The notes beneath the pieces were generated by a model. It saw only the letters and a list, made by a program, of their open reading frames with translations, had not been told where the DNA came from and made no database searches. A stretch of 55,508 nt of DNA, filler included, from Bipalium vagum (taxonomy: Eukaryota): the NCBI GenBank assembly GCA_037834085.1. It is 3 parts of 3 records of this genome, joined end to end, with 100 filler letters (N's around TTAATTAATTAA, not from the genome) between each part and the next. Parts side by side here need not be neighbours in the genome. Positions count along the whole stretch, not along the records: positions 1 to 17,780 come from JBBMKC010051548.1; 2 more parts are not named here. One strand, written 5' to 3'. Both the position numbers and the translations under genes were made by a program. Every line of letters starts with the position of its first letter. Position 1 is the stretch's first letter. This document shows positions 1 to 55,310 of the stretch, piece by piece.

Positions 1-72
1 GACTGTCAAAATATAATATATCATTTTATTTCATGAAACTGCTAAGTGATCATAAACTTTTGGCGGGGACTG
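1..72. mobile_element. Tc1-like element terminus
   Basis: Reverse complement reads TA-CAGTCCCCGCCAAAAGTTTATGATCAC, a typical Tc1 TIR with TA target. Confidence 0.55.
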
Positions 73-1899
73 TATATGTATTCGTAATATTTTTTCCTAA
101 TAAAGATATTTATGAGGATTCCTTGTAAATCTGAAAATCGAGATTTGTTGTTTGATGAATGAAAATGTATCAAATTCTTAATCTAAAACAGAATATTTTT
201 GGCCTCAAGAGATAACTGTCATTTTTCTATATAATTATTATCAAGCAATATGACTTGATCGTGTCGCTCCGCTCATTTTGGTCTCCTTACTCAGGAAATT
301 ATTGCGTAACTGGACTAGTTTTTATTGTAGCGATTGGCAGTTACGACATAGTACAGTATGTCGCGCTGATCCCACCAGGTGCAGAGTAAGACGTTCTTCC
401 CGTGAATGTTCGATTTTGCCGGCTTATTGGAGCTTCCCGATGATCTTTATATAAAAACTATAATATATTTATAGAAAGCTGATAATATCTAGAAAATAAT
501 AGCAGTTCATTAAAAAATATATTGATTTACCGAAATAACATAAAACTTTAATAAAAACGTGGAAAATAACTTGTGCACCTGATACTTAATATCTTAATAT
601 GCAAACAAATCAGGATTGGTGAGAAAAACTCAACTTCAAGAAGAATTCCTTTTTATGAGAAGCAGAAGCAATCATGTTTAAACCTTTCTAAAGAAAGGGT
701 TGATGGAAAGATATCATGCACTACTGTTCCAGGTTAGAGCAAACGTATATTATTACCCAAAATTTGATTATTGTTTTTATTAATATTAAATATTGAATTA
801 AAATAAATTTAATTCATTGTTTAAATGAATTTTTAAATCAAATTTTTTACTTACTACAATTAATGATGTTGAAGGTTTTTGAGATAAGAGATTAAATATT
901 TTTTGTTTCTTTCCATTTTTAAAATATTTTTTAAAAATAAATATAAATATAAAAAATAAAAAAATTAATCAGAAACTAAGTTATATTTTACCATAATTTT
1001 ATTATAATTCTTTTCAGTTAAAATATTGAATTAAAATAAATCTAATTCATTGATTTCAGTTAAAATTATTATTTTTTAACTTATTTAATATTTTTAAAAT
1101 TAAATGATCCACATTATCATGCCCAGCTTTTAGAACTGATAAATCTACTTTCTTAAAGTTATAAATTGTTCAATAGGATTTTTTGGTTTCAAATCGTTAT
1201 TTATCTTCGTAATTAAATATATTACATTTTTAATTTGTATAAATAGGAGCAAATGTTATTTCTTCATCATAATATACAATTTTTCTTTCATTTTTAAAAT
1301 ATAAATTCTGAAACATTTTTAATATTTTACATCACAGAATATAATAGGATACAATTTTTTCATCTAATTTTCAATTTCTTTCACTTTTGTTTCACTTTTA
1401 AATTCTTAAAAAGTTAAATTTCATAAATTTTTATGTTATGTTTATAATATTTAAATTCAAAAAGTAATTTTCATTAAAATAAAATAATATTCAATGTTCC
1501 CTACATTCCTCCAAAATTTCAGTTTTAATTTCAATTCAGTTAATTCCTCTAATTCTTTTCATATATTTTCAAAATCAACATTATCAAAATAAATCTTTTT
1601 CACTTATATTATTATTTGAAGAGTTAAAAAATAAAGGTCTCATAAAAGTATATCTTTTCAACGAAAATATCTGACAATTTTCTTATTTTTCCTTTTAACA
1701 CATCTCACACAATATTTTGGATAATAATATTTATAGAACTGATGTTTTACCCGATTTATCCAAATTGGAGTGTTCGTGCGTTGCTCTAACCTAGGACAGT
1801 ATTTCATGATATCTTTCCATCGACTCTTTCTTTTGAAAGGTTTGAACATGATCGTTTCTGCTTCTCTAAAAAGGGATTCTTTTTCTTGAAACTGATTTC

Positions 1900-4488
1900 T
1901 GCCCATGTGAATAATTTTCTATTATCCCACACAGAATGAGGTCCGAATATAAACCAGAGCTACGACCTTCATGACGAGGGCAATCACTCAGCTCAAACTT
2001 TTCCCTATTGCCTCGAAGCTCAAAGAAAAAGTCTTTCAAATTGTCAGCTAAAGAACAGGCGGTACTGGAGTTGACAGAATCAGTTGGATTAATTATAAAG
2101 CAATTCTCTTTTGTGAAGTCGAGGATAAGCATAAGTTGGTGAAAGTACGGAGGCCGGAATAAAATGAAAATTATTGAGGCATTTGTGATGCTACTCAGAT
2201 CAATAAAAGACATGATATAATCAGTGCAACCGTCCACAATTGCTGTAAACGCAGTGCTATCAAAAAGAATATACCTGTCAGCAAGTTTCAGGTTTTCGAA
2301 AAAGACTTGGCTAGAGGAATTGTATAAGAGAAAATTGGTGTTTCTCGTCTTCGTCACAGCAGGCGAAACGGAATATGATGACGCCCTCCCATTATCTTTT
2401 TTATTATTAGCCTGGATTTTTGTATCTTTATTATGATTATTAATATAATTATAATATTTTTATTTAAAATATTAAAATTATTAAGATTATAATGGTTATT
2501 TTTGCTCTTATAATAATTCGAGGAGTGATCATTATCTACGACTGTGTTCTGGTAGCGCACACAAGTATTGTGATACGCTACGGTCAAAACGTCCGACGTC
2601 ACGGAATATTTGCAGATGATATTCGTGACAATTTTGAATTTGTTAAAGTCGTTTATGGATTCATTTGAACTAGCTTCAAAAAGAACACAATGAAATGGCT
2701 GAAACGAAATCTTTGGAATGAAATTCCAATTCCAAAATGAAGCAAATCTGTTGCCAAATGCAGCCATCCTTTCCGACAAAAGGTGGTTATACGTGTTAAA
2801 GATGTAACACTTTTTGCTTAAGAGAAAAACGTGGAGAATGTGCCAAAGGTTATCTAGAAGGAAAAGCAAATTACATCTTGAAGGTCTTTGGTGACACAAC
2901 TATTGTCAAGTACAACACTCAGATCACATTCAGCGTCAGTAATCGGAGGCAACAAAAAGTAACAGAGGAAGATGAGATTCAGTACTCGAGAACTTTATAA
3001 ATGAAGGGAATTTCAATATTCAGTGAACAGATATTCCTGAAACCTTCAAGATTTGAAAAGTTTTTATTTTGAAGGTTGAATAAAGAGACTATGTTCTTGA
3101 CGTAGCGAACCAATTCATCTTTGTTGAAAATAAAGGCGTTTTCTGTGCCTAAAAAAGAAATGAAAGTACTATAACCACAAACCAGAGGTCCGCAATCATA
3201 GCCTTTTGTTTGCCGTGGAAGATTTTCGTGAGGTTGTCTATTAATTGGACATCAAGATCGAAAAGAGAATTCAGGTTTCTACGAAGATTTTTGACGAGAG
3301 GCAAACAAACGTGAGACATATAAGCGTAAACAAGGGGATCAGTGAAGTATGAGCACATTGACAGCTTGCAGTAAACAAAGAGAATCCAGTGTTTATTCAT
3401 TTATTAGTGGACAGAACAGAGTGGATGCGGTATATGCATCTTTCTGGATAGTCGGGTTATTGTTTTGGTCCGACTGAGCAATCAGAAGAACAAAGATAGG
3501 GTTCATGTTGAAATGACCTTCACTAAGATGTGAGGAGAGAAAATAATCGATATCTGCGTCGGTGAAAAAACTTTGATCGCCGACCAGAATGGAGGTAGAG
3601 TTGAGTATACTAGTGCATTCTACACCTGTCAAAATAACAGGAATACTTGCAAAGAGACAGGTGTAGGCACATCATGTCAGAATTTCTTCAAAGCCTTCTG
3701 TTTGACATTTCTAGTACGCCTAGAAACTGGAGTATAGGGCGTAGCAACAGTAGGCTTAGGAGTTATTTCAATTGCATCCGATTTGACATCGCTATTCGAG
3801 TTGTTGGTATTCTTAGCATGACCATTGATGGAGGAAATACAAGAAGAACAGAGAAATCCAGACAGATTTGCGATAGAAATTTCAGTCAGAGACTCGTTGA
3901 CAATTAGGTGTCGGGGAAGTTCAGAACGTGACGTATCAAGCTTTTCAGAATTTGAGCAGTCAGATGCGGCTGGATTCAAGAACAGAAGCTTTCCATCGAC
4001 GCATTTCAGTTTAGTTTTCACAAGAAATTCCGGTAAGCTATGAGATTTAGTCAGTCTATCAACGATGTTATTAATTTCCTTAGCCTTTTTCTCTAAATTC
4101 GGATTGAAAACCGTCTTGGAAAAGTCATTCAAAAACTCTAACAAAAACTTTGAAAAATTTGGTGGCGCTTCAACAAAATCAGGGCCAAAAGAATTGAAAT
4201 CAAAAGTATTAAAATCGGACAAGAGAAAATTATCGGAAACAACAGTCGAAGAACGATTATTTAGATCAGAACTCCTTGAATTATTAATACATCTATTGTT
4301 ATGAAAATTAGTGACATTTTTTTATTATTATGATTTGATTTTTTATTAAAATGGGACAATTTAGGAGTCAAATTATTATTATCATTAACAGAGTGAACAC
4401 TAGTTTTATTAAAATTAAAATCAGCGATATTTTTGTTACTTTTTTTATTTTTAACAATCGAATTTTCAAAATATCGCTCAGTGTTCAT
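1900..4488 (-). pseudogene. Frameshifted long ORF with Ulp1/SENP (peptidase C48)-like protease domains, probably transposon-borne
   Basis: Motifs FTDADIDYFL, FCPLIN/NKHWILFVY, YFTDPL and, after a frameshift, Q-KGYDCGPLVCGY give a His-Asp-Cys triad. Two further degenerate similar blocks lie downstream. Confidence 0.7.
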
Positions 4489-5103
4489 TATATACAACTT
4501 GACCTTTTTATATATCAACTTTTTGATTGTGTCTGATTTTTTGTGTATATATCTTGTGTATGATGACCTTGTCTCTAATCCTGATCCTTATCGTCAAAAA
4601 AATAACTTTTTTATCTATTTTCTGAGAATTGAGGCTCACCACCCTTTTTAGAATTTTTCTGTTTATATTCCACCCACATTGCTGGCCTTTTTCTGAACAC
4701 CCCTCTCTACCATCTCTTCTTATATTTCAAATCTCAATCCCTATTAATCTGTCCTCTCATTGCACCCATAGCTTTAAAATTTTATCTTTTAGCATTTTGA
4801 AGTTGCCACATATGGGGAGCCTCAATCATAATTGTATTTATTTAATATTTGTTTATGTAATGCAAAATTGGAAAGTCCCGAACCAAGTCTGGTAAGGTTA
4901 ATCACGTAATTAATTTAAAATTTCTATTTACTAATCTGAAAAAATGATTCAATTTGGTGGCTTGGTTTCAAAGATATGGGACTTTCAATTTCCCACCCTT
5001 TAATTTAATTTATCTAAATAACTCTAAGTTTCTACTTAGTTATTTATTATCATTGTAGTATTTTTATGATATATGTTTTATTAATTTTAATAAATATGTT
5101 TCT

Positions 5104-6100
5104 ATGCCTTCAACCACTTTACTCCCCTGGCCATCCTCCACTTCCGCTTGTCTTCCGGCCTTACTTCCGCCTTCCCATTCAGGCTACGAATTCATACTCT
5201 TGACCCACTTTCTTATGGCTCATATCTATTTTCCGGATACCATGGGAAGCATATTCACACCTTCTGTACCAGCAGATTCCTTTCGCTGCCTCGGTGAGAG
5301 CTACCAAGTGCCAGCTCCTTGCTGAGGTAGCACTGAAAGACTATATTGTGGCGTATAATCCGAGCTTCTGGAAAACCTTCCAAAACTCGGACTATGTCCC
5401 TCTAGAAGCCCATTCTCCCTCTCCGAGTGCTCCCATTGGCTCCCCACTGACTGGCAACCGGCAACGCTGGGGTAACCGCCGTCGTGGACGTGGTCGAAGC
5501 CCGGGAAAAAAGCAAACTTTACCTTCGCTTCCGGCCCCCTCTGATACTGGAGATTTGATCATTTCGTGTACGAATGGCCCACATACGAGCCGTACGGTTT
5601 CTGTTAGGTGCCCGCTTGGGGAGAAACACAGCGCATACTGAGGAATTTATCCCAACCTAGTTCCCCAGTTACTACGGCTACGCCGTCTTTTCCAGTTTTT
5701 GTTGGAGTTGAATGTCAAACGGATCTCTGGAGTGCCCCTGAGCGCGTGGACCAAGCGTTACAGACTGATCCTTGGATATCTGCTCCGGCCTCTAACTTGA
5801 TCAAAAGTGTAGCTAGTACTTCCACTTCAAAATTGATGGTTTCCCAAAGGGCACCCCAAATTATCACTCCGAAGCGCACTGGCCCTCTCCACAGCCTCTT
5901 CAGAAATCCTTCAGCTGTCTCCCAACCATCTCCGCCTCTCTACACTGGACCGCCGCCAACTATTACCTAATCTGACACCGATATCTCATTCTCCCCGCTT
6001 GAAGGACCCTTCCATTCAACGAATGAAGCCTTGTCCCTGAAAACCTGCACCATCCGACTTTCTCAATCTGTTCCCCGTTGCTCTGAAATGCCCTGACATC
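5104..6100 (+). pseudogene. GC-rich Pro/Ser/Thr-rich ORF broken by frameshifts, likely retroelement ORF1/gag-like remnant
   Basis: Three overlapping ORFs in successive frames, much higher GC than flanks, basic patch RRRGRGRSPGKK; no recognisable domain. Confidence 0.35.
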
Positions 6101-6107
6101 CTCTCCA

Positions 6108-7136
6108 CTTTAACATAGAAGCAGCTTTAACCATATATGTAGCTGCGTCGGATATTAGAAAATTAAAATCATCAACATTAATATCAATTTCAATAAAAAT
6201 ACTTATAATTATTCTTACAATAATTCCAGAATAAATCGAGCTTTTCAATATAATCTTTTCATATAAATAATGCTCAAATGGATTTTCCAATAGCCAATAA
6301 TTACATTACAAAATTTAATACCTTTTACTTCAGCTTCATCTATTATTAAAAATATTTTCTTTTGGGTAAATTTAAATTTTAAGCTCATTTTCTTAGACCG
6401 ATAAATATCAATAATATGCAATCTAACTGAAGATTCTGATCAGCTTGATTGCCCCAAAAACATAAATAAATTTATAATTGCTGGATGTCTCGTTTTTTTA
6501 AAGGAATATCGGCAGCTAGAAACGATTCAGCAATTTTCATGGATAGAGATGATGTAGGAAAATTGATCTCTTGTTGAATTTTTGGACTTTTCATATCTTG
6601 TGCCAATTTCGAATGTTTTGACGTATTTAAATGTTGCACTACTGATGATTTTCGATCATAGGAAATATACGAAACACATATTTGACAGAATAATAATTTC
6701 GTTTAATATAAATTTGAATCTTTTGTACTTTTTTTGATATCTTAACCATTTTATTGGGATTGTGAGGATTAAAAAGTTTTAAATAATTTTAATTAGTTTA
6801 AATATTTATTATTTAAACTAATTAATTAGTTTGTTTGAATAATTGTTATATTAAAATAAATAATTTTGAAATGACTCTTGGTAACTTATCAACTGATATA
6901 AATGTAACTAACAGGGATAATAAGACAAATTTTAAATATTTATCATTGCTAAGTTAATGACAGACATTAAATAATAAATGATAAATAATTTAATAATAAA
7001 ACCGAAAAAACCTAAACATTTAAAATAATTTTACATTGAAAATTGTAAATTAATTAAAAAATCAAAAATGCGTATATAAATGCATTTTTGGTAAATTTGG
7101 GAATAATATGCATTTATATGCAAATTGGTTGCCCTA
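6108..7136 (-). mobile_element. hAT (CGGBP1/DUF659-like) transposon 5' remnant
   Basis: Decayed ORF from ATG 6749 with CQIC...QHLNTSKH Zn finger, FLAADIPLKK, IIDEAE and LISDAATYMVKAA; terminus TAGGGCAACCAATTTGCATATAAATGC at 7136. Confidence 0.75.
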
Positions 7137-7339
7137 GTCATCAATGTAGGACGAGGACCATGAAACGTGATTTTGATGGAGAAATGAATAACAATGCAAT
7201 GAGTCTCTCGTCATCTTCAATTAATTGGTTTTTAAAATAAATTAAACTAAAAACTTATATAATCACCACCTCATCCAAAAACACAAACATGGTTGTTTCG
7301 TGATTGTATCTTAACATCTCTCTAAACGCCGATTAATAG

Positions 7340-7738
7340 ATTATCTCTATGAAACCACTTCCTCACAGATTTGTAACGAGAAATAGGGCACGGTATTGTA
7401 TGCAAATTTCAGGAAAGCCAAGGAATGGGTGGGTCCTCAAAGAACGGCGGAGACTAGAGTTAAACAAAACTACCATCCAAAGAAGATTATGATATGTGTT
7501 TGGTGTGAGTTTTTATGAGGGTCTTTTGCGTGAGGAGATTTTTCTGAGGAACCAGACAGTTGATAAGAACTTTTATTTATTTCAATTAGAAAGAGTAAAT
7601 TAAGCTATTAAATAAAAAAGACCCAACCGAAAAGAGGAGGTTATCCTACTTCATGATAACTCGTGACCGCACACAACTAACTGTGATAAACTTGCCCTCC
7701 AAGAGCTTAATTGGGTAGTTCTTATACATCCTCAATAT
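7340..7738 (+). mobile_element. mariner transposase fragment
   Basis: HPKKIMICVW, VILLHDNS.PH, ELNWVVLIHPQY; cut off by an LTR-like insertion. Confidence 0.85.
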
Positions 7739-8470
7739 TGTTGGGTTTACCCAAAACACCCACCCGTCCCACATGAAAATTGTAAAATGGTGTTTAAAAT
7801 AATAATTATTATTATTATGAAATTGGACCCAAAAGGACAAAATAATAATAATAATCATAATCATAATCATAATAATACTAAGAATAATAATTAAATAATT
7901 TTAGCTAATTAAAAAGTACAAAAGTTAATTAAAAAGAAAAGAATGCAATAAATTTTTTTTTTGGATCTAATCTTGACAATGGCGAACCTAAATTGCCAAG
8001 ATTAGATCAGGGTCCGCAAGGAGGGACCGATTTAGGATTAATGATTCTAAAAGGGGAATTGACATTTCCCATTAATAAAATTAGTCTACCACTGATTAGT
8101 CGTCGACCAAAATACTATATAAGGAGAATTATCCATAAATTCGCCCTCAACGACAATGAGAAATTAGACAATCGTTATTCGAAGAAGACAATCGTTAATC
8201 GGAGGAGATTATCAGAGAATTCCAAGTATATTTTTAATGTACCCAACCCTGGAATTGTGTTTGAATTCCCCATCAGATGACTATTTCTGAGCAACTGTAA
8301 AGGCTCAGATAATAGTCCGGGAAGCTTAAACAAATCTAACCTGTAAGCTCGTTTATTTTATTTTCTTCTTGCTTATCTTAACAGTTTAATTTATTATTAA
8401 TATAAATATTATTATAATTTCACTATTGAATCATTTAGGTGTTTATTTTGTTGTTGTTTTTATGCAACTT
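7739..8470 (+). mobile_element. Putative solo LTR-like repeat (TGTTGGGTTTRCC family); right end approximate
   Basis: Starts TGTTGGGTTTACCCAAAACAC; same terminus at 24982 (+) and 38857 (-). Confidence 0.4.
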
Positions 8471-9214
8471 TTAATTAATTGCGGTTAGCGAAGCTTATAT
8501 AATTGCAAAGGGTTCCATGAGCAAAGTAGCCATTTGTATAGAGTACTGTTTTACCGAAAAGGTTGAAAAACACTGAATCTGAGTCAAAAGTTAGTTCCTA
8601 AAACAAAATCCAAAATTAAATTTTTCAAAATAAACCGTATTAAAAAAAAAGATGGGACAAATGTAATACCACATTGCCTCATAGTTAAGAGACAAAATCC
8701 ATAACACTTTTTTAAATCTAAGAGCCTTTTTAAATTGCATCGAATATCTAAAACGATTTAAAGTAGTTCTACATCTCTACTGTAGGAAATATTTTAATCA
8801 GAACTGAAGAAATATCTGTTCCAAAAAATTGGAAATTATCCATACATGAGCAAATATAATCAATAATCCCTTAAAAGTTTAGAAATTTTCTGACACCAAC
8901 ATATCTTTTTATGGATTTTGAAGGCTTCACAAATATACAGAACCAATTTTATCATTTTAGAACAAATCTATCGACCTAAAATCTTATGGTATGACTTGTG
9001 GACTTGTCTGATTTTCCGGAAAAGGTTTAGATTACATCAGTTATGATGGTACTTTTTATGATTTGTGTGTTAGAATATTTAAGTTCTCTCTTTTACTCTA
9101 AAGTAAACCTTTCCCTTCTAATTGATTATTTACACTAACAATCGATGATTTCGAAATTTAGGAGTGATTTTCTAAAAAAGACCTTGTCCAAAAGAAAATC
9201 CGTCGGACAAGATT

Positions 9215-9506
9215 TCAGGTCGAAGGAACGTGATCAGAGACTTGAGCTCGCACGAGAGACGAAGACAAAAGTAACGAAGCGTTCTCCAACGCCTTTATCG
9301 GCCTCTCTTTGTAACATAACAGAAACCCCTGGACCTGGGCCGGGGATACACGTCTCGGACCGATTTTGTGAACAAATTGCGACACAACACTCTCGTCACA
9401 GTTCGGATAAAATTGTCGAAACATTTTTTCCAATTGACTTTCTGAACATAATGTCAATTCAAACGACAAATCAACTCGGCCGGGTCGCACAAGAGCTGGA
9501 TCCAAT
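9215..9506 (-). CDS. BCS1L: BCS1 exon 3 (terminal)
   Basis: tttcAG acceptor; LDPALVRPGRVD (SRH/Arg finger) ... SPAQVQGFLL ... stop at 9215. Exons sum to 907+118+292 = 1317 nt, in frame. Confidence 0.92.
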
Positions 9507-9557
9507 CTGAAATGACTGACCAATGAAAAAACTTGTTCCCGCGAAACAAGACAATAC

Positions 9558-9675
9558 CTCTCCGGATAATTTGTTGTCATGAAAAGAATACGACCTTCAG
9601 TTGACGAAACTCCGTCCAAAGCATTCAACAAACCACTCAATGTTAACGGTGACATTCCTTGGTAAGCAGGATTTT
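9558..9675 (-). CDS. BCS1L: BCS1 exon 2
   Basis: catAG acceptor with phase-1 join giving KNPAYQGMSPLTLSGLLNALDGVSSTEGRILFMTTNYPER; donor AG|gtattg. Confidence 0.93.
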
Positions 9676-9806
9676 CTATGGGTCACAATTTTAAAAAATA
9701 ATTTATAATAAATAATAAAAATATAACTAAACAATAATAATAAAATAATCGCTATTCAGTCTTTAATAATTATCAATAATTAATGGATATTAATAAATAA
9801 TGAAAC

Positions 9807-9810
<4 letters not shown>

Positions 9811-9843
<33 letters not shown>
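9811..9843. repeat. (ATT)n microsatellite in BCS1 intron 1
   Basis: Directly visible run of about 11 ATT units. Confidence 0.9.
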
Positions 9844-9844
<1 letters not shown>

Positions 9845-9948
9845 GTTCGTAATCTTTAATAACAATGATACATAATAATCTTTATTAATAATGAAATAAA
9901 TTTTTTAATAAAAATAATTGATAAATTTAATATTATTAACTTGTAATA

Positions 9949-10481
9949 CAGGATTTAACACGTCATTTAGCTTCGTTAACATTACATTTCGTTATTAAAA
10001 AATTTGATTTAATTTTTATAACATAAGATTTTTCTAACAAAAAACACCAATATTTTTAATTAAATTCAACATAATCAATTTCCATCAATAATTGTCAGCT
10101 TCTGCATACATTTAGGGATAAAAGAAAACACATTGCGATAAAATCCAGCACAGTCTTCATTCGTTTTGAGAAGAGACGAATGGTCAATAACCATTAAAAG
10201 TTGCTCCTCATTTTGTGGCCTTGATTGTCTTACTTTTTGTTTCCATTTTGAAAACATATTTTCGATAGGATTTTAAAAAGGCGAATAAGGTGGAAGGAAT
10301 AATAGTTAAATATTTTCCAAATCGAATTTATCCCTAATTACTTGTGATTTATGGAAGGGAACATTGTCCATAATCACTAGGGCTTTAGAAATGTTCTGTG
10401 ATTTTTTAATATGCCCAACTAAATTATCGATTATGAAAACAAATTATAAATTTAACATACTATATGACGTGTTAACCCCTG
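9949..10481 (-). mobile_element. Internally deleted IS630/Tc1-like (DD34E) element in BCS1 intron 1
   Basis: TIRs CAGGATTTAACACGTCATTTAG / CTATATGACGTGTTAACCCCTG with TA on both sides; MDNVPFHKS...LFLPPYSPF*NPIENMFSKWK, 34 residues between D and E. Confidence 0.85.
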
Positions 10482-11168
10482 TAATAATTCATAATATTAA
10501 TCGATGATGTTTAATAATTATATGTTAATTATTAATAAAAATCAATAAAACTAAAAGTTAATAATAAAAGATAATTGAAATTAATAATACAAATGGGTAA
10601 CAGAACAAAAAATCAATACCATTCAATAATACAAGTAATATAAAGATATTAATAATAACTCTATAATGATCAATAATATTATCCAGTAAAGTAATATTAA
10701 TTGATAAAATTAATTTATAATAATCAAGAATTATTCCATAATCATTAATAATATTAAATCGATAATTACACATTTATAATATTAATTAATAATACAATTA
10801 AATAATAAGCAATAGAATTAATCGAAATAAATAAATTTTAATTAATATTTAATTAATCAATATTAATAGGAAAGATTAATCACAAAAAATATTTAATGAT
10901 AAAATTAAAAATGATTAAATAAACAACAGAAATAATTGATAATAATCAAAATAATAAATCTTAATAATCGATAAAATTATATAAGTAATATTTTTCAACA
11001 ATATAATGAAAAAATAATCAATAAAAATAAAAATAATCCATCGTAATATTAATAAATAACATTTAAATAGATTAATAGAAAATAATTAACCAATTAAAAG
11101 GAAAATTCTGTGTTTAAATTTCGTCGTCGTCGTCAATCTCTCCCACTCGGAAAAAAGTAGAAACTAAC

Positions 11169-12075
11169 TCGACTGGGAGCCGTCAGATCTACTGACGAAG
11201 GCTGCGTCGACGTCCTCGAGCAGAATGAGGGACTGGAGCGGTGCGTGGGCAAGCAAGTGGTCGAGGCGGTCGCCGGACATGCCGTACTCACCGAGACTAA
11301 GAACGCAGACGCTGTGCTGTAGGGCACCGGCAAGGGCTGCGATGAAGGACGACTTTCCGCAGCCAGGCGGGCCGTGGAGCAGGTAGCCGCGACGGTAAGG
11401 AACGCCTCGTGCGCGGTACCAATCTTGTTGGCTGATGAATTCACGCACGTCGTCAACCAGTTGCTGGGCGATACCATCGTCAAGGACAACGCTCGACAAA
11501 GGTCGTGGAGTGCGTGGATATCCGAAGGGGCGCCACTCCGCCCCGAATGCTTTATAGACTATCGTCCAACCGCTCTCCTTGCGCAGCGCTTCCCCCTTGG
11601 CAAGCTCGAGCACGCCGTGGAAGAACTGGCGGTCCCTGCCAATTGTTGTCAATGTTACGCTTTCAAATGGTGTTCCTGTGCCACTCAATGATCCCCCAAA
11701 TGATCCCATTGTCGTTGGCTGTGTCCTGGAACGTTCTGCCTTCACCAATCGACTCTGGAAAAGGAAAAAGTGCGCACCCGGGGCCGGGATGAACTCGTAT
11801 TGTGTCTCGATTTTGCCCGCTTCATTGCGGTGGAAAGCTGTCTCGACACTAAGATGGGATGCCGACATTTGACGCGCAAGCCACGGTGAGACCCACTGGT
11901 AGCTCTTGTCGGTACTCGGGATCTCAAGCGTCATCGTGAGGTTGCGTCGGGCCAGTGTCTGCAATAGCTGCACACCTTTGCGGAGAACTGCTGTTCCCAC
12001 TGCCAAACCGAACAGGCCGGATCCAGCTTGGAAGTAGTCATTAGTCAACAATGATTGAATTGCGGTTTCGATTGT
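11169..12075 (-). CDS. BCS1L: Mitochondrial chaperone BCS1 (AAA ATPase, complex III Rieske insertion), coding exon 1
   Basis: Reads TIETAIQSLLTNDYFQAGSGLFGLAVGTAVLRKG (BCS1 N-terminal TM segment), then EWRPFGYPRTPRPLSSVVLD, Walker A GYLLHGPPGCGKSS and Walker B LILLEDVDAAF. Preceded by acceptor tttttAG; ends at donor A|gttagt (phase 1). No in-frame ATG upstream. Confidence 0.95.
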
Positions 12076-24495: not shown

Positions 24496-27250
24496 AAAAA
24501 GAGTTTATCACAACTAAGTTAAAATAAATTTATGGTAAGTGAAGCCGGAAATCGAGAGAGAGAGGTGTAATTATTATATAAATTTTGTTGAGACATGTAC
24601 ATTATTTGACAGCCAATTGGATTCGTTTATTATGTAGTAAATCAACGAAGAAATAAGAAAAACAGTTTTTATTGTTGTATTGAAAAAGAAAAAGTCGCAC
24701 AAATCCGACCAGTTATATTTTTGAAATTGAGAATATTGATTTTTCCTTTTTCCGCTTTTAAAATTCATATTCCGGAATTTTAGAGTCAAAGAGAAGAATG
24801 AAAACATTCAAATTTGTGAACAAAGTAAAAATGTTCCTAGAAATTCTGGACGAATAGACAACATACAAACTGACTCGTGAGTTGAACCGATTGAGAGACA
24901 ATCTGAACAGTATCATGCTTTGTTATCGTAGTTATTTGAAGTGAATATTGGTCATTAAATGTTGTACGATTATTTAAATACTGTTGGGTTTGCCAAAAAC
25001 ACAACCGATTGTGGTACTAATAATGATTTTTGTAAATAATAATAATATTAAATAAAATTTTTATTTCAAAAATTAAAATCAGTCTAGAAAGCCATATATG
25101 AAAATCTCGACGGCGAGATTTTGATATATTGGGCTAATAAATTTATTTTTTAATGGAGATGCGTCCCGTCGTGGGAATTAAATTTTTATAAATAATTTTT
25201 TGATAAAACTTTATCTCGGCGTGGAGAAAGAGTTTGATTAATGGCAATTAGTGGATTTTGAGAGATAATATTTTATTATGTGATTAATTTAAAAGATAAA
25301 AGCGGTAAACGTTTACAGATCTGTATGAGTTATTATTTTAAATATTGCCTTTTACTATCTCAACGATTTAGAAAGGATTTCAAAACAAATAAAATTGAAT
25401 TTAACTTTCAACACAAATAAGGAATTGATGGCGATCTTAGGTTTATTTCTCTCTAAGATCTATTATTTATTACTGTTACTAATATTATTATGAAATATAT
25501 TCTTGCTATATTTTGACTTATTATGTTGCTTGCTTAGTGAAAATGGATTAGGGTAGTTCGACTAATCTCTCACTAACCAATACAATGATTCCAATAAAAA
25601 TTAAATAAAGTGAGAAAAAAGGTTGCGTGTTATCAATGTATATTTATGATCACAAACAACTTTTCCTTTGGAATAGTTTAGAAAAGTCTAGAAAATTATC
25701 AACTGATAGCAGTCTTGATAATCCATTAGGTAAGCAACGAATCTTCATCTAATAGTGTTAAGATTCTGAATTTTGATCAAAAAAGATTTCTTTTATTTGA
25801 TTCTGAAGTTGGCGAAAATAGTTGTTTCTTGAGTATTTACTATTGTTATTATTAAATTTATTAAAGAGCTTCAGCTAAACTGAGCTGTTTAGGGAGACTT
25901 CTTTTATTTTTTTAATTTAGTTAGTTAAGTTTGTCAGACCATCAACGGATCTTGAGAAACATAGACTGGATTGGGTTTACATTTTCTAATATTTAAAAAT
26001 AATAATTTTTTTATATGAAAAAGTTGTTTAATAATAATATCAATATTAGTGTTAAAATAAAATGAATAATTTTTATGTATTTGATGTTTCATATTGTTAG
26101 GTTCAAATTATTATTCAACTCGTATCATAACATCGGTCAGCTCTTGCCTCCACATTTCCATCCCTGTATCTTATAACAAAATATAGTCAATTAATAAATA
26201 TTGAATAATTGTAAATTGAGCTGAAATAAAACGGAAAAATCAATATAAATATACAAACTAGAAAATAAAAAACTATAGACAAAATAAATTGAAAAATTCT
26301 TACATGATATAGGACTAACAGGCTCTTGGATCAACCATGGCTTCATAATCGGGTCATTCGTGATTGAGCAAGTTTCACTGAGCCCGGTCGTCTTTGAAAA
26401 CAGTGAATAACATGTCGTTCTTCAAATGTTTTCAGAAAAATATTCTTTGAACAATATTCAATTTTCAATAATCTTTAAACTATATTCAACAACTTTCTTT
26501 CATCTTCTCAGCTCTGTGAACTCATTTATGGCCGACATCAGCTAATTAAAAATCACCGGCCAAATTGGATGCGATTATTCAATTTTAGGACCTCCGTGAG
26601 AAATATTTAAATGCTTCTGGGGGAAACAATTAAATGATTATAAAGCTACTGTTGTCAGCCACAAAAAATCTTTTAGGCGGCAGAAACTGTCTATAGAAGT
26701 AACGTGCCAAAATCAGGGGTCTAATGACTCTAATGCCATTAGGGAAATAGAGAAAAAAATTATCTTTTTTGAGGAAAAAATTATTTCCCGAATATATTTT
26801 TTAAGGAAATGTTCTTAAAACCCATTATCTGTCATTTAATTACTTTGCAACTAATGTGTATTTCCACATAAATTATTATTATATTATACTACGAGTTAAA
26901 AAAGGTTATATTCATTTTTTTTTAATAATAATGAGCAACTGTTGCTACCTGAATTATTTCGGAAATCTAAATGTTGTAAAGTAAATTAAAAACAAAATCT
27001 TCTTCAGTGTTAAACTTTAGTCTTATCCAGCCAATGTTTTCACCGGAGCAAAAGGTTCTGAGACAAAATATTTCACGTTACATACCGGCAATAATATGCA
27101 TAAGAGAACTATTTAAATATCAAAATCAATCTAACGCACAAAAAGAATAATTTTATGCTATTTCTCTTCTGGATGTACTCCTATTTATAGTATTATTCCT
27201 GCAGAGCCAGATCAATCCGATTGTAAAATTAATTTAATGATGTTAATATA

Positions 27251-28263
27251 CAGGGTCTTCCAAAAGAAGCTTTACTACTTTTAAAATGTTAAATACTATG
27301 TAGTTTTTGTTTAAATAAATTATTATTTAACATTATTTTAGCTAAACATTTGAAAATTAAATATAGATCATTATAATATGCAACAATTGGCGGAAATTTT
27401 CAAAATATTTTTTCAAAGCGGTAGTTCAATTTCAGTAACCGTTAAAAAATTAAATGCAAAATTTGGGAAAACCAAATTTCCATCAAAACCAACAATTTAC
27501 AGCCTGGTTAATGCTTTTGAAGCATTTGGCTCGGTAGCAGGTACACCAAAATCTGACGACCTGGATCTGCGCGTATACCTGAAAATATTGCAAGTACACA
27601 AGAAAGCATTGAAGACAATAAATGCACCTCAATCAGTCATGGAGCACAGGAATTAAACCTCTCAAAATCCAGTTTGTCGCGGATAATGCATGAAGATTTG
27701 CATATGAAAGCCTATAAGCTTATCATAGTTCAGAAGCTTAAAGAATCAGACCATCAAAGTCGCTTGAATTATTTTAATTGGTTGTTAGAAAGATCAATTG
27801 CGAATCCTCATTTTGGGAGAAAAATCATTATGACTGATAAAAGTCATTTTCACTTGAGTAAAGGTGTTTTAATAAACAAAATTGTCGAATTTAAAAAACA
27901 AAGCAACCGTATGTTTTGAAGGCAGAAGCATTACATTCGCAAAAGTTATTGTATTGTGTGGAATATAGGCAAGATGTGTAATAGGTCCATAATTCTTCGA
28001 AAATGTTGCATGTAAAACAGTTACAGTAACAGGAGAGAGAGATATCGACACGTGATAGAAACATTCCTTATGCCTTATCTGAATGATTTTAATGTGGAGA
28101 ATATTTAATTTCAGCAAGATAGTACCACATTCCATACAAATAGGATTAATTTTTGTAATATCTGTGTTTAAATAAAGGTATAAATAAAGTTACTTGGGTT
28201 TTTAATTTTTATGTACGGAGAAATAGCGACTTAAAGTAGTAAATCTTTTTTTGATAGACCCTG
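27251..28263 (+). mobile_element. Tc1/mariner superfamily element (DUF4817/Tc3-like, probably DD41D type), decayed
   Basis: TIRs CAGGGTCTTCCAAAAGAAGCTTTACTACTTT / AAAGTAGTAAATCTTTTTTTGATAGACCCTG with TA flanks; PTIYSLVNAFEAFGSV, DLHMKAYK, IMTDKSHFHL, FQQD. Confidence 0.88.
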
Positions 28264-29769
28264 TATATGCACTGGATCTGAGTACGCTTCGGGGAACAAT
28301 AAACATATAAGTTAAAAGCTTATACATTAATAGAAAATCCGCACAAATGATGTTTTTTGTGCCTGCACTAGGTCCACTGACGAAATCTGAATTATCAAGA
28401 TGGTCCTGCAAAGACTTTGCTGCATGGAAAATGAATCAATGTTATGAAACTTTAATGTTTGATAGCCTCTTGGATAAATTTTATAATCAAATTTCTCAAA
28501 GTCAAAAATCGGAACACTTTAAAAAAGTTATTTTAATAAAGTTCCCTATTAAAGAAATATCAATTTAAGTGTTCAAAATTTAATAATTCTCAATTTATTC
28601 GAAATTAAAATTAAAATTTAATTCAATAATATAAATGTAATTAATATAACGCTCACTCTTCTTTCAACGCCAAAATCAATCGTATTCTTTCCAAATTACC
28701 ACTCTTACCTCAGTTTATTTTGTTTTGTATAGTTCAAGCATCTCTATGATATATAGGAAGTTTTCGAGTTCCTACAATTCACCAATTTCGCCAGTGGTTA
28801 ATGCTGCCTGACAATTCAGTACACAACAACAATTAATCTATTAATGGATATCTTAGTTTACATTTTTATCCTTCTTTTAACTTTAAATAAAGAGGAAAGA
28901 AAGAATATTTATTTATTTTTGTTATTATAATATTTTACTTATCTTTTAATTATAAAAATACTTATTAACAATAATAATAATACTTATTTTAATATATTTT
29001 CATGCAAATCACAATTTGAAACTAACTCAACAACGTAATATGTAAAATTATAAAAGTAATTATTACTTGTCATCCACTATCGCCATGTATACGCAACTAT
29101 TCTTTTCAAACCCTTCGAAAACCCAAGTGCAGCCTTTAGTATTTTTTTTCCAAATTTGGATTAGTTAATCTCCACTTTCTTGCCATGACCACCAAGGTTT
29201 TTTTCACCAATAGGTCACTTGTTAAGAGTTTTCATTGACCTTAACTGCTGAAAAATTGAGAAGTTCACATTTTGAACTCATGAGTTCATAAAAATCCAAT
29301 ATATAATAAAATAAACAATGCAAAATGTTGTACCTAAAATATGGATAAAGGGGTACCAGAAAAATAGTCCCTCCTGTAATTTCACATCTCCTTTTTTAAG
29401 GTTTCTGTTTTTTGATAGAAAAAATTTTCTTGCATATCCATTTTATTCCATCTGAAGAATACTTATGTTCTGATATGGACATGTAACCACCCCAATCCTG
29501 ACATGTTTACTGTTTGGGCATCAATCCTTATTCAATTAATTTTATTGAAAGTCCATCTTTACTATTATAAATTATGTAATTGAATACATTTTTTTTATTT
29601 TAATGGTAACTAAAGAGAATATAGACTTTAATATTCAACTTAACTTTTTTACTAGCAAATTTAATTTCCACTCAAAATTTGTTTTAAATATATATATTTA
29701 AAATTTTTTTGAAAACTAAGAAAATGGTAAAGTAAATATTCTATTCAAAAGAATTATCTAATATATATA

Positions 29770-30900
29770 CAGTAGGTTCAAAAAGTTCCGTGACTTATGT
29801 TGTAAAAGCCAAAAATAATGAGAGAAAATAAAATTTAATTTTTAAAATATAACCCTTCTCTCTTTATACATTTCTGGCATCATCCATACAACCTCTGGAA
29901 GGCGTTGTGTTACTCCTCTTTTGGAATCAATTTCAAAAATCTTGTTATATTTCTCTGAATTTTATCAAAAAATCTGCCCTTAAGGGTTGCTTTCATCTTC
30001 AGAGAAAGAAAATAGTCTGTCGGAGCTAGATCGGGTGAATATGGTTGATCATGGAAACCTTTTTCTTCGTCAAAAATCGTGAAACGATAAGTGATGTATG
30101 TACAGGTGCATTGTCACGCAAAAGGAATCATTCACATGATAACGCATAATCCAGTCTAACTCTTCGAATTCTGTTCAAAAGTGGTTTCAGGACCTCTTGA
30201 TAAAATATCCAGTTACCGTTTGATCTTGCGGAACAAATTCACGATTGATAATTACCCACAAATCAAAAGATACGATAAGCATTGTTTTAATTTTCGACTT
30301 CGTCAATCTGATTTTTATCGGTCTTCTTTCATTCTGTTCAAGCCATTCGGTTGTTTGACGTTTTTTTGATGGATCATACTGTAAGCACCACGCTCCATTG
30401 CCTCTAACAATGTTTTTTATAAAATTTGAATTACGGTCGGCATGTTGAAGAAAATATTGCGAACCTTGTGCACATTGCAGCTTTTGATCTGACGCCAAAA
30501 AGTGTGGAACGAATTTCGTACACAATTTTAGTTTTCCAAGAAAGTCATGAACGATATTGTGGACACTTCCAGCGCTTAAACTGACATCTACCGATAACAC
30601 TTAAGGTTTATTCTGCGGTTTCCTATCATTACAGTTCGAACTTAATCCACATTCTTTTAGTTGATACTTGTGGTGTGACCACCCTATCTCTCATTATCCT
30701 CCTGTGATTCACGGCCATTCTTGAACATTGAAAAGCATTCAAAGACCTTGCTACGACTCGTGCAATCTTTTCCATATGTCTATTGCTGTTTTCCCACATT
30801 TAAAATTAAATTTGATTGTTGCTCTTTGTTCCATTTCTTATTATTAGAATTCAAATTATTAAGCTAAAGTTGATTATAAATTAGAATTGATACATTTAAT
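29770..30900 (-). mobile_element. Decayed mariner
   Basis: TIR CAGTAGGTTCAAAAAGTTCCGTGAC; KFVPHFL, WCLQYDP.KKRQ, KTMLIVSFD, DNAPVH, YSPDLAPTDYF. Confidence 0.88.
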
Positions 30901-33855: not shown

Positions 33856-33946
33856 GTAGGAAATTACTTATCTTTCAGGGATCATAAAATTACAAAAATC
33901 AATCTTTCTCTCTATCTCATTCAATTATAGTTTTTCTTTTCTCCAG

Positions 33947-34162
33947 GTTCAACATAGAGAAGTGAAAGATCATTCTACGATTGATATTATGTGTATGGAT
34001 TTTCTTTTTTCATTGATTAGCGAAATATTTCCCCAAATGAATTTGAAATGGTTGGCTGAGGAAACACGACAAAATCTACCAAAAGAATTAAACTTTTTAA
34101 TGGAAGGAAAAAATGCAGAAAGTCTCAGGGATAGGTTGTCGAAAAAATTTTCTTTTCTTGTA
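33947..34162 (+). CDS. ADCK1: ADCK1 exon 5 (gene continues; later exons not found in window)
   Basis: ctccAG acceptor; VQHREVKDHSTIDI...WLAEETRQNLPKELNFLMEGKNAE; donor gtaagc. Confidence 0.92.
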
Positions 34163-34629
34163 GTAAGCGTTATCTTTATGATTTTGATACACCTTGCATG
34201 ATATATTGATGTTAAGATTTTTCCAATAATTACTAAAGCTCTTTCAGATCCTTGGATCTTGAAATTTGCACATTTTAAAATCATAAGGTCTTTAATAAAT
34301 AAATATAAATACGCAAAATAATTATAATCATTATCTTTGTATTAATATTGATAATTTTTAAAGACTCAGATATGGTCAAAATATATCATTTTAACTTAAT
34401 TTTATAACGTGTGTTTATTATTGATCAAAAATTCAATGGAGATTTCAATCAAAGTTTAAGGTTTAAAGAATTTGAATTTTAAATTCTGCAATAATAGCAT
34501 TAAATTAATAATAAAATAATTACAAAAATATTTTGGTTCTCTTGCGATTTGTTATTTTGGATTGATCTCAGTATACATTTATTAATAGTAATAAATTTAT
34601 TAAAAATCAGTAAAAATAAAGTAAAAATA

Positions 34630-54619: not shown

Positions 54620-55310
54620 ATGAAGAATGGAATATCAAATTAACCAATACAAGAATTATGTTTAGTATTTAGGATTAGTTGTAATGTTCAAGCTTTTCAA
54701 AAAATCAATATTACATTCTGGTAGGACGAACATCATCAAAAAATTTTGAAATTTAACGAAAATTGATGACTGCCATTCGGTAAAGGCGAACGATATCCAG
54801 TAAACAACTTGGACTTCAACTTGAATGCTCGATTAAAGCAACAAGTACCTTGCGTCATATCATGAAATCTAAGATTCAAGGTTGGGTAAGACAACCTCAA
54901 TTATCAGAGATAAACAAAAAAAAACGATTGGAACGATGTGCAGACCATCATATTGTTGCCCCTCACACCACAGTTTTGGATGAAAAATATCTCCATTTAA
55001 TAACACTGGAAATATATTTATATATTTTATCTCATATATTTACTCGGAAAATGCAAAAACCCACATTTTTAGAAACCTCCATAAATTGAATGCTTGTGTA
55101 TGGAATCTTCTTACACGCCTTCCATATTCTTCGATTTTATATATTTTAATTGATAACATGTCAAGTATTTTGAAACTTGTTAAAGTGCAGTATCTTAATT
55201 TTTCTTATCTGAATCCAAAAAAATTTTTGTTAGTATGAGTTATGAAGCTACCTCAGAGATGTAAGACCATTATTGAAAATAATGGTCAATATCTAACTAA
55301 TTATTATTAA
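54620..55310 (+). mobile_element. Decayed Tc1/mariner-superfamily transposase
   Basis: QLSEINKKKRLERC, VLDEKY, RCKTIIENNGQY. Confidence 0.6.

Follow-up and report, generated by a model that had tools for sequence, protein, structure and literature searches.

Unrelated transposons have repeatedly captured Ulp1 protease domains, and why they do so is an open question, for which the literature, in the portions available, offers suggestions only. NeSL elements and Utopia-1_TSP carry one Ulp1-like domain before the reverse transcriptase (RT), according to the accessible text of PMC4640811. In the planarian R5/LIN elements, which are RLE-type elements of flatworms, a protease is not mentioned in the accessible part of the same paper, and the RT tree discussed below holds no R5/LIN protein. 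Ginger1 and Mutator, which are likewise mobile elements with a captured Ulp1 domain, are described in the available portion of PMC2836005 as possessing DDE transposases and a single C-terminal Ulp1 domain, with no RT. The fold family is also common to adenovirus Avp, ASFV pS273R and poxvirus I7, as given in parts of PMC4584293 and PMC10318531.

The locus described herein lies in the window, a stretch of 55,508 nucleotides joined from three records of the Bipalium vagum assembly GCA_037834085.1, and it is very probably the decayed remnant of a multicopy element, the intact relatives of which are RLE-type non-LTR retrotransposons. The family resembles NeSL and Utopia-1_TSP in its RLE type, in an N-terminal Ulp1-like domain upstream of the RT and in the retained W..D, HW and Q...[DN]CG motifs, as far as the accessible description of those elements extends. 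One protease is reported there, whereas the window family combines one complete domain (D1, block 1 of the locus) with one or two cysteine-less copies (D2 and D3, blocks 2 and 3) and a Gly-Gly linker. Utopia elements are generally depicted, in the excerpts available, as encoding a single protein with one to three N-terminal zinc fingers; in contrast, a pattern search found an N-terminal C2H2 finger in 0/16 ORF2 proteins of the family, which apparently follow an ORF1. The U2 or SL target of Utopia and NeSL elements was not seen for the window family, of which the element ends are missing. An array of complete and dead proteases in a retrotransposon was not found in the literature covered, a scope outside which Repbase, most subscription papers and the supplements of surveys lie, and is not mentioned in the available portions of PMC13580325 and PMC10318531. 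The wording of the original prediction, an undescribed system, was too strong, and the locus is better regarded as an elaboration of the known Ulp1-RT domain fusion.

Layout, copies and decay of the locus

Table 1. Features of the locus and of its second fragment, in positions of the window.
Feature	Position	Strand	Remark
Second fragment of the family, more strongly decayed	302..900	+	block 3 and downstream part; tail to tail with main copy
Decayed continuation past block 3	1563..1910	-	common to second copy; clearest at 1898-1781
Block 3 (D3)	1911..2351	-	open frame; Ulp1/SENP fold
D3 triad positions	His 2141-2139, Asn 2090-2088, Ser 1946-1944	-	
Asn-rich spacer between blocks 2 and 3	2352..2530	-	with frame break
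Block 2 (D2), C48-like, most degenerate of the copies	2531..3030	-	one stop, two frameshifts
Linker position of the family Gly-Gly	3033..3056	-	window copy S-N-L-E-G
Block 1 (D1), C48 protease domain	3078..3578	-	two frameshifts; by profile and model of a relative
D1 residues	His 3391-3389, Asp 3340-3338, Gln 3212-3210, Cys 3194-3192	-	
ORF2 leader, GTG-CCT (VPTPV) and LTGVECTS	3570..3670	-	one frame break inside (3652, 3643)
Probable ORF1, Asn/Ser-rich	3677..4488	-	frame break near 4320; ends at TGA 3679-3677

The motifs quoted in the original prediction were all recovered on the minus strand, namely FTDADIDYFL (3566-3537), NKHWILFVY (3397-3371), FTDPL (3346-3332), QTKGYDCGP (3212-3186) and LDNLWHILHVF (2857-2825), together with the frame of block 3 (2351-1911). 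The three blocks themselves proved real, as frameshift-tolerant alignment to intact relatives scored 314 against at most 30.4 in five shuffles, and the alignment to five such relatives was collinear across the three blocks, between 3578 and 1911. Block 2 alone scored 73.1, a value reached by 0/100 shuffles, and block 3 matched relatives down to an E of 4e-27 in phmmer. Within block 1 of the window, Pfam detected just the half with the Cys, under the cut-off (E 0.0026), and the ORF2 leader is weak alone, with a score of 22.5 that 4/100 shuffles equalled.

Frame breaks were placed by profile at about 3395, 3231, 2956 and 2864. The corresponding contigs from one run of one study (X1), which is possibly the source of the window, harbor one- or two-letter insertions at 3403/3405, 3233, 2953 and 2861. 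They also carry a substitution that falls in the stop at 2981-2979, and all four indels restored the frame when checked by hand. Because the breaks match these differences, they reflect decay or assembly error in the window copy rather than introns, which agrees with the earlier view that no intron is evident. The copy in the window is itself a defunct relic, frameshifted and with no detectable RT. The comparison with X1 covered 2530-4290 (1.76 kb), outside which the spacer at 2352..2530 lies; the contigs span 3677-4290, and thus that portion of the probable ORF1 falls within the repeated unit. Among the 40 X1 differences listed of 68, the synonymous share was 12/27 in ORF2, against 28% expected, and 1/12 in ORF1, numbers too few to use.

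The element is repeated, as indicated by the second fragment and by X1, in which 64/106 contigs are under 95% identical over the 1.76 kb and loose ends occur. The DNA score of the second fragment was 289, compared with a mean of 166 and a maximum of 193.5 in 100 shuffles, and it is 85% identical to the main copy over 627-742. The inverted arms at 627-742 and 1781-1898 were considered as a MITE or a terminal repeat, and this was rejected because the match runs on through block 3. Neither the 5' nor the 3' end of the element has survived or could be placed in the window copy; with these ends missing, no Rfam match at E up to 1 was obtained in positions 1-9000 of the window and no tRNA was found in the window.

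A single long ORF had been predicted, whereas there are probably two. The TGA at 3679-3677 sits 6 nt before VPTPV (3670-3656), which corresponds to the Met-Pro start conserved in 9/12 relatives, and LTGVECTS in the window leader resembles a T-G-A-D-S-T-like motif of theirs. In the related locus L001, a 734-codon ORF is followed by an in-frame TGA-CAA, a single dead C48 domain, the RT and the RLE. The stop and start in the window, taken with this layout, suggest that the Asn/Ser-rich part probably constitutes an ORF1 of its own, although upstream ORFs are visible only in L001, L002 and the window; the two-ORF layout is also that of R5. The probable ORF1 gave no meaningful Pfam match and nothing among the fetched proteins or loci. 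The pre-ORF2 stop is in frame in 3/3 cases: TGA-CAT in the window (3679-3670, minus strand), TGA-CAA in L001 (2283-2288) and TGA-TGG in L002 (495-500). TGA followed by C is a leaky stop context, and the absence of an early Met from the ORF2 of L001 is a hint of read-through. A tRNA-like match about 1 kb behind L001 was noted alongside the R5/LIN likeness; this match in the 3' flank (6754-6811) is sub-threshold and accompanied by imperfect repeats.

The window consists of AT-rich eukaryotic DNA with assembly gaps. At 5100-6050 there is an island of high GC content (47-56% over 5200-6000), whose plus-strand frames are broken, Pro/Ser-rich and oriented away from the 5' end of the element, and neither a Pfam match nor anything among the fetched proteins or loci was obtained for it. 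A spliced BCS1 gene (9218-12075, minus strand), with a 52% GC exon amid introns of roughly 20% GC, contains a transposase-like relic near 10100-10420 in an intron. Tc1/mariner-like relics lie at 7100-7740, 27250-28270, 30190-30600 and 54784-55089, the second of which has 36-bp inverted ends (27246-27281 and 28233-28268), and an ABC1 atypical kinase exon was found at 33860-34200 (plus strand; Pfam E 7e-14).

Relatives and their reverse transcriptase

Searching with block 3, phmmer returned ten proteins at E <=0.001, including nine related ones and one spurious repeat protein, while a word-based search for longer proteins passed 0/570 candidates, the method being too insensitive. After further searches, twelve full-length ORFs of 1344-1541 residues were collected, all with D1, D3 and an RT in the same ORF and 11/12 with D2. 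Strict patterns in a wider group found a C-terminal CCHC knuckle in 15/16 and an RLE motif in 10/16 proteins. The mobile element of the original prediction could be narrowed, through the RT, CCHC and RLE of the relatives, to an RLE-type non-LTR retrotransposon.

A quick RT tree was built from 89/98 RT-bearing rows, with nine left out (seven near-copies of P0015, together with P0011 and P0050), and in it the twelve relatives form one branch with an SH-aLRT of 99. Next to this branch stand P0039, P0042 and P0044, whose ORFs, as called, open with a D3-like domain and are possibly truncated, and then L001 and L002; a dead domain precedes the RT also in the sister branches of P0039, P0042, P0044 and L001. 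P0001, which has no D2, is nested inside the twelve-member branch, so D2 was probably lost secondarily there. The closest solved proteins to the relatives are R2 ORFs (E 4e-86), and the 76 RT matches included no protein named as NeSL, Utopia or R5. Within the tree, which has no named members of those three groups, the clade takes an unsettled position amid R2-like proteins with automatic names, at 32-38% identity.

Several members have their own peculiarities. The dead C48 domain of L001 (2286-2800) has Arg for His, has lost the Cys and scores about equally on the D1 and D2 profiles. P0039, in which a Helicase_C domain (E 8e-14) comes after the RT and the CCHC motif is absent, might be a chimera or an odd fusion. 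P0088 and P0015, which bear an RT outside the clade on long branches, have one complete C48 domain each, placed in P0088 after C2H2 fingers, and this suggests further or older captures of the protease.

A downstream RT, which had been proposed as a check, is present in all twelve full-length relatives; in the window, none was detectable by profile alignment, and the link of the locus to an RT runs through homologues of 25-47% identity. A candidate decayed RT at about 1200-800, noticed by eye from KAGHDNVD (1130-1107), was discarded, as it scored 22.4 against 23.8 +/- 2.1 in shuffles and, with a larger profile, its score was equalled by 19/100 shuffles. The linker behind D3 likewise did not stand out at the protein level in the window: its score in one comparison was equalled by 55/100 shuffles, and another comparison gave 0.3 bits.

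With an RT undetectable in the window and an unnamed viral cluster as the top Atlas hit of block 3 (0.95), the locus might be a host SENP8-like pseudogene, an endogenous viral protease gene or the cargo of a DNA transposon such as MULE, Ginger1 or Zisupton, Ulp1 being carried by Ginger1 and Mutator in the available part of PMC2836005. This is highly improbable, given that every full-length relative has an RT and none a transposase family (Pfam), that the breaks are simple indels and that the sequence is repeated. A host SENP8/DEN1 gene was largely ruled out by the repeated copies and the RT fusion of the relatives, and an Ulp1-bearing DNA transposon by their RT and the lack of any transposase family.

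The complete protease domain and the Gly-Gly linker

The original prediction of a His-Asp-Cys triad in block 1 needing frameshift repair was confirmed, the triad and the oxyanion Gln being present in the window across two frameshifts. All twelve relatives have the triad and the Gln, with a His-Asp spacing of 17 (16 in one) and an Asp-Cys spacing of 49. The D1 model of the relative P0013 matched Ulp1 with a Z of 18.1 (rmsd 3.3, 175 aligned), tied with SENP8, and D1 is predicted to be catalytically active. The Z scores of this model were 15-18 against cellular Ulp1/SENP proteins and 11.0-11.4 against viral CE-clan proteases. Avp, pS273R and I7 are stand-alone enzymes in the partial accounts available, whereas D1 is part of the polyprotein that it would cut and is nearer to cellular Ulp1/SENP.

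In 11/13 relatives a Gly-Gly is located 43-52 residues C-terminal to the catalytic Cys, within a span of 27 residues, compared with 3.7% of other spans of that size; the thirteen sequences are kin, and a binomial p therefore overstates the case. Viral proteases related to D1 cut their own polyproteins after Gly-Gly-X, according to the accessible portion of PMC4584293. The Gly-Gly linker favours self-processing, and it is somewhat more likely than not, as judged from sequence, that D1 cuts the polyprotein at the Gly-Gly directly behind itself. Cleavage in trans would be likelier than in cis, owing to the distance of 43-52 residues between the site and D1's own Cys. The linker around the Gly-Gly is otherwise poorly conserved, the position four residues before the putative cut varies widely, and P0001 and P0014 have an intact triad and no Gly-Gly. 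The window copy reads Glu-Gly at the site, and this codon is absent among the 40 listed of the 68 X1 differences. When D1 was predicted in complex with the Gly-Gly linker of P0041, with no alignment used, the score was 0.00, which speaks neither for nor against the cut, and a three-domain model, which places the linker at low confidence, says nothing on cleavage.

The best joint explanation, to which we assign a probability of roughly 0.55, is that the locus is a retrotransposon relic, that D1 would cleave itself free and that the dead copies would form a module on the RT. The intact relatives encode the protease, two cysteine-less copies, the RT and the endonuclease in one polyprotein, from which D1 would release itself at the Gly-Gly, and D2 and D3 would remain attached to the RT and act there as a non-catalytic module for binding or scaffolding, in the place held by zinc fingers in R2 and Utopia proteins. 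Inactive papain-like domains act elsewhere as scaffolds or DNA binders, as described in the available text of PMC10318531.

Cysteine-less copies and the significance of the array

The array of a protease and pseudo-proteases is supported by structure for block 3 and, for block 2, by profile together with secondary-structure prediction. The model of window block 3 (pLDDT 86) matched SENP1 at E 9e-5 and Ulp1 at TM 0.67 in Foldseek, and SENP5 with a Z of 14.8 (rmsd 2.8, 149 aligned); it therefore models as the C48 fold of Ulp1/SENP structures. The earlier claim that block 3 has neither the catalytic D nor DCG stands, yet the His is kept, with Asn for Asp and Ser for Cys. Among eighteen D3 sequences the Cys site is Ser in 15, Asn in two, Val in one and Cys in none, the His is kept in 14 and Asn replaces Asp in 17. 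Ser136 (1946-1944) was placed at the Cys site through aligned end points against SENP1 C603S and SENP2 C548S, with the last helix assumed gapless.

Block 2 is a C48 homologue by profile. Its helix-strand order in the three-domain model equals that of D1 and D3, and the D2 profile exceeded the 99th shuffle percentile on 11/11 D1 and 11/17 D3 sequences and gave 46 bits on the dead domain of L001. The Atlas recognised block 2 poorly and assigned it to no family. That block 2 is devoid of the catalytic Cys motif was confirmed, DCG being absent from D2; the catalytic His column holds His in 0/12 and Leu in the window, and the His of 'WHIL' in block 2 comes after Trp, which is not the catalytic position.

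D2 is the least conserved domain (mean identity 25%, compared with 39% for D3 and 35% for D1) and is absent in P0001 and P0002, which fits the view that D2 and D3 are remnants of tandem duplication with no function, retained only as spacers. This view appears improbable, as D3 is conserved like catalytic D1 and retains the near-invariant motifs NP and SG (17/18 each) across elements whose RTs are about 51% identical.

A freed D1 may also strip host proteins of SUMO or of some other ubiquitin-like tag. In a tentative and rather unlikely alternative to the joint reading, the array would serve as an anti-silencing cassette, in which D1 removes SUMO or NEDD8 from host silencing factors, D3 (with D2) traps the tag or proteins that bear it, and the Gly-Gly acts either as a flexible linker or as a secondary site. 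Gly-rich stretches are indeed frequent in flexible linkers. The WFxD of D1, whose Asp is a SUMO-binding residue in Ulp1, is kept in 11/12 relatives, the twelfth being cut short, and window block 1 has Phe in place of the Trp. The loss of SUMO in Drosophila raises R1 about 1000-fold and R2 RNA about 300-fold, according to the available part of PMC7676866. D1 is, however, equally near to SUMO and NEDD8 proteases (Z 18.1 each), which does not indicate a substrate.

A tag-trapping D3 receives mixed support from the sequences. Two Trp residues of Ulp1, W448 and W515, form the Gly-Gly tunnel, and both sites have lost their Trp in all D3 sequences covering them. Ser in 15/18 and His in 14/18 D3 sequences resemble the Ulp1 C580S SUMO trap of PMC3216068, but that trap, in the portion of the paper available, was engineered as a single mutant on an intact SUMO interface, and its binding is abolished by D451N. 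At the site equivalent to D451, the Asp of the salt bridge with SUMO, mapped like the other D3 residues on Ulp1 from aligned end points rather than inspected coordinates, D3 holds Asp in 2/16 and Asn in 6/16 sequences. The anti-silencing and self-cleavage roles of D1 are not mutually exclusive. A combined version, which we regard as doubtful, would have the Cys-to-Ser domain replace the zinc fingers and tether the RT to chromatin marked with SUMO or a ubiquitin-like tag, thereby setting the insertion site, while D1, freed at a tag-mimicking Gly-Gly, would strip the mark and lift silencing.

One ORF that unites a full-triad protease, a candidate cut site and conserved cysteine-less copies makes the question of Ulp1 capture testable, and the twelve intact natural versions offer built-in controls, as two have no Gly-Gly and one has no D2. 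RLE retrotransposons are now used for genome engineering. If the joint reading is true, polyprotein self-processing, or a pseudo-protease in the place of the zinc fingers, would be new for this class of retrotransposons.
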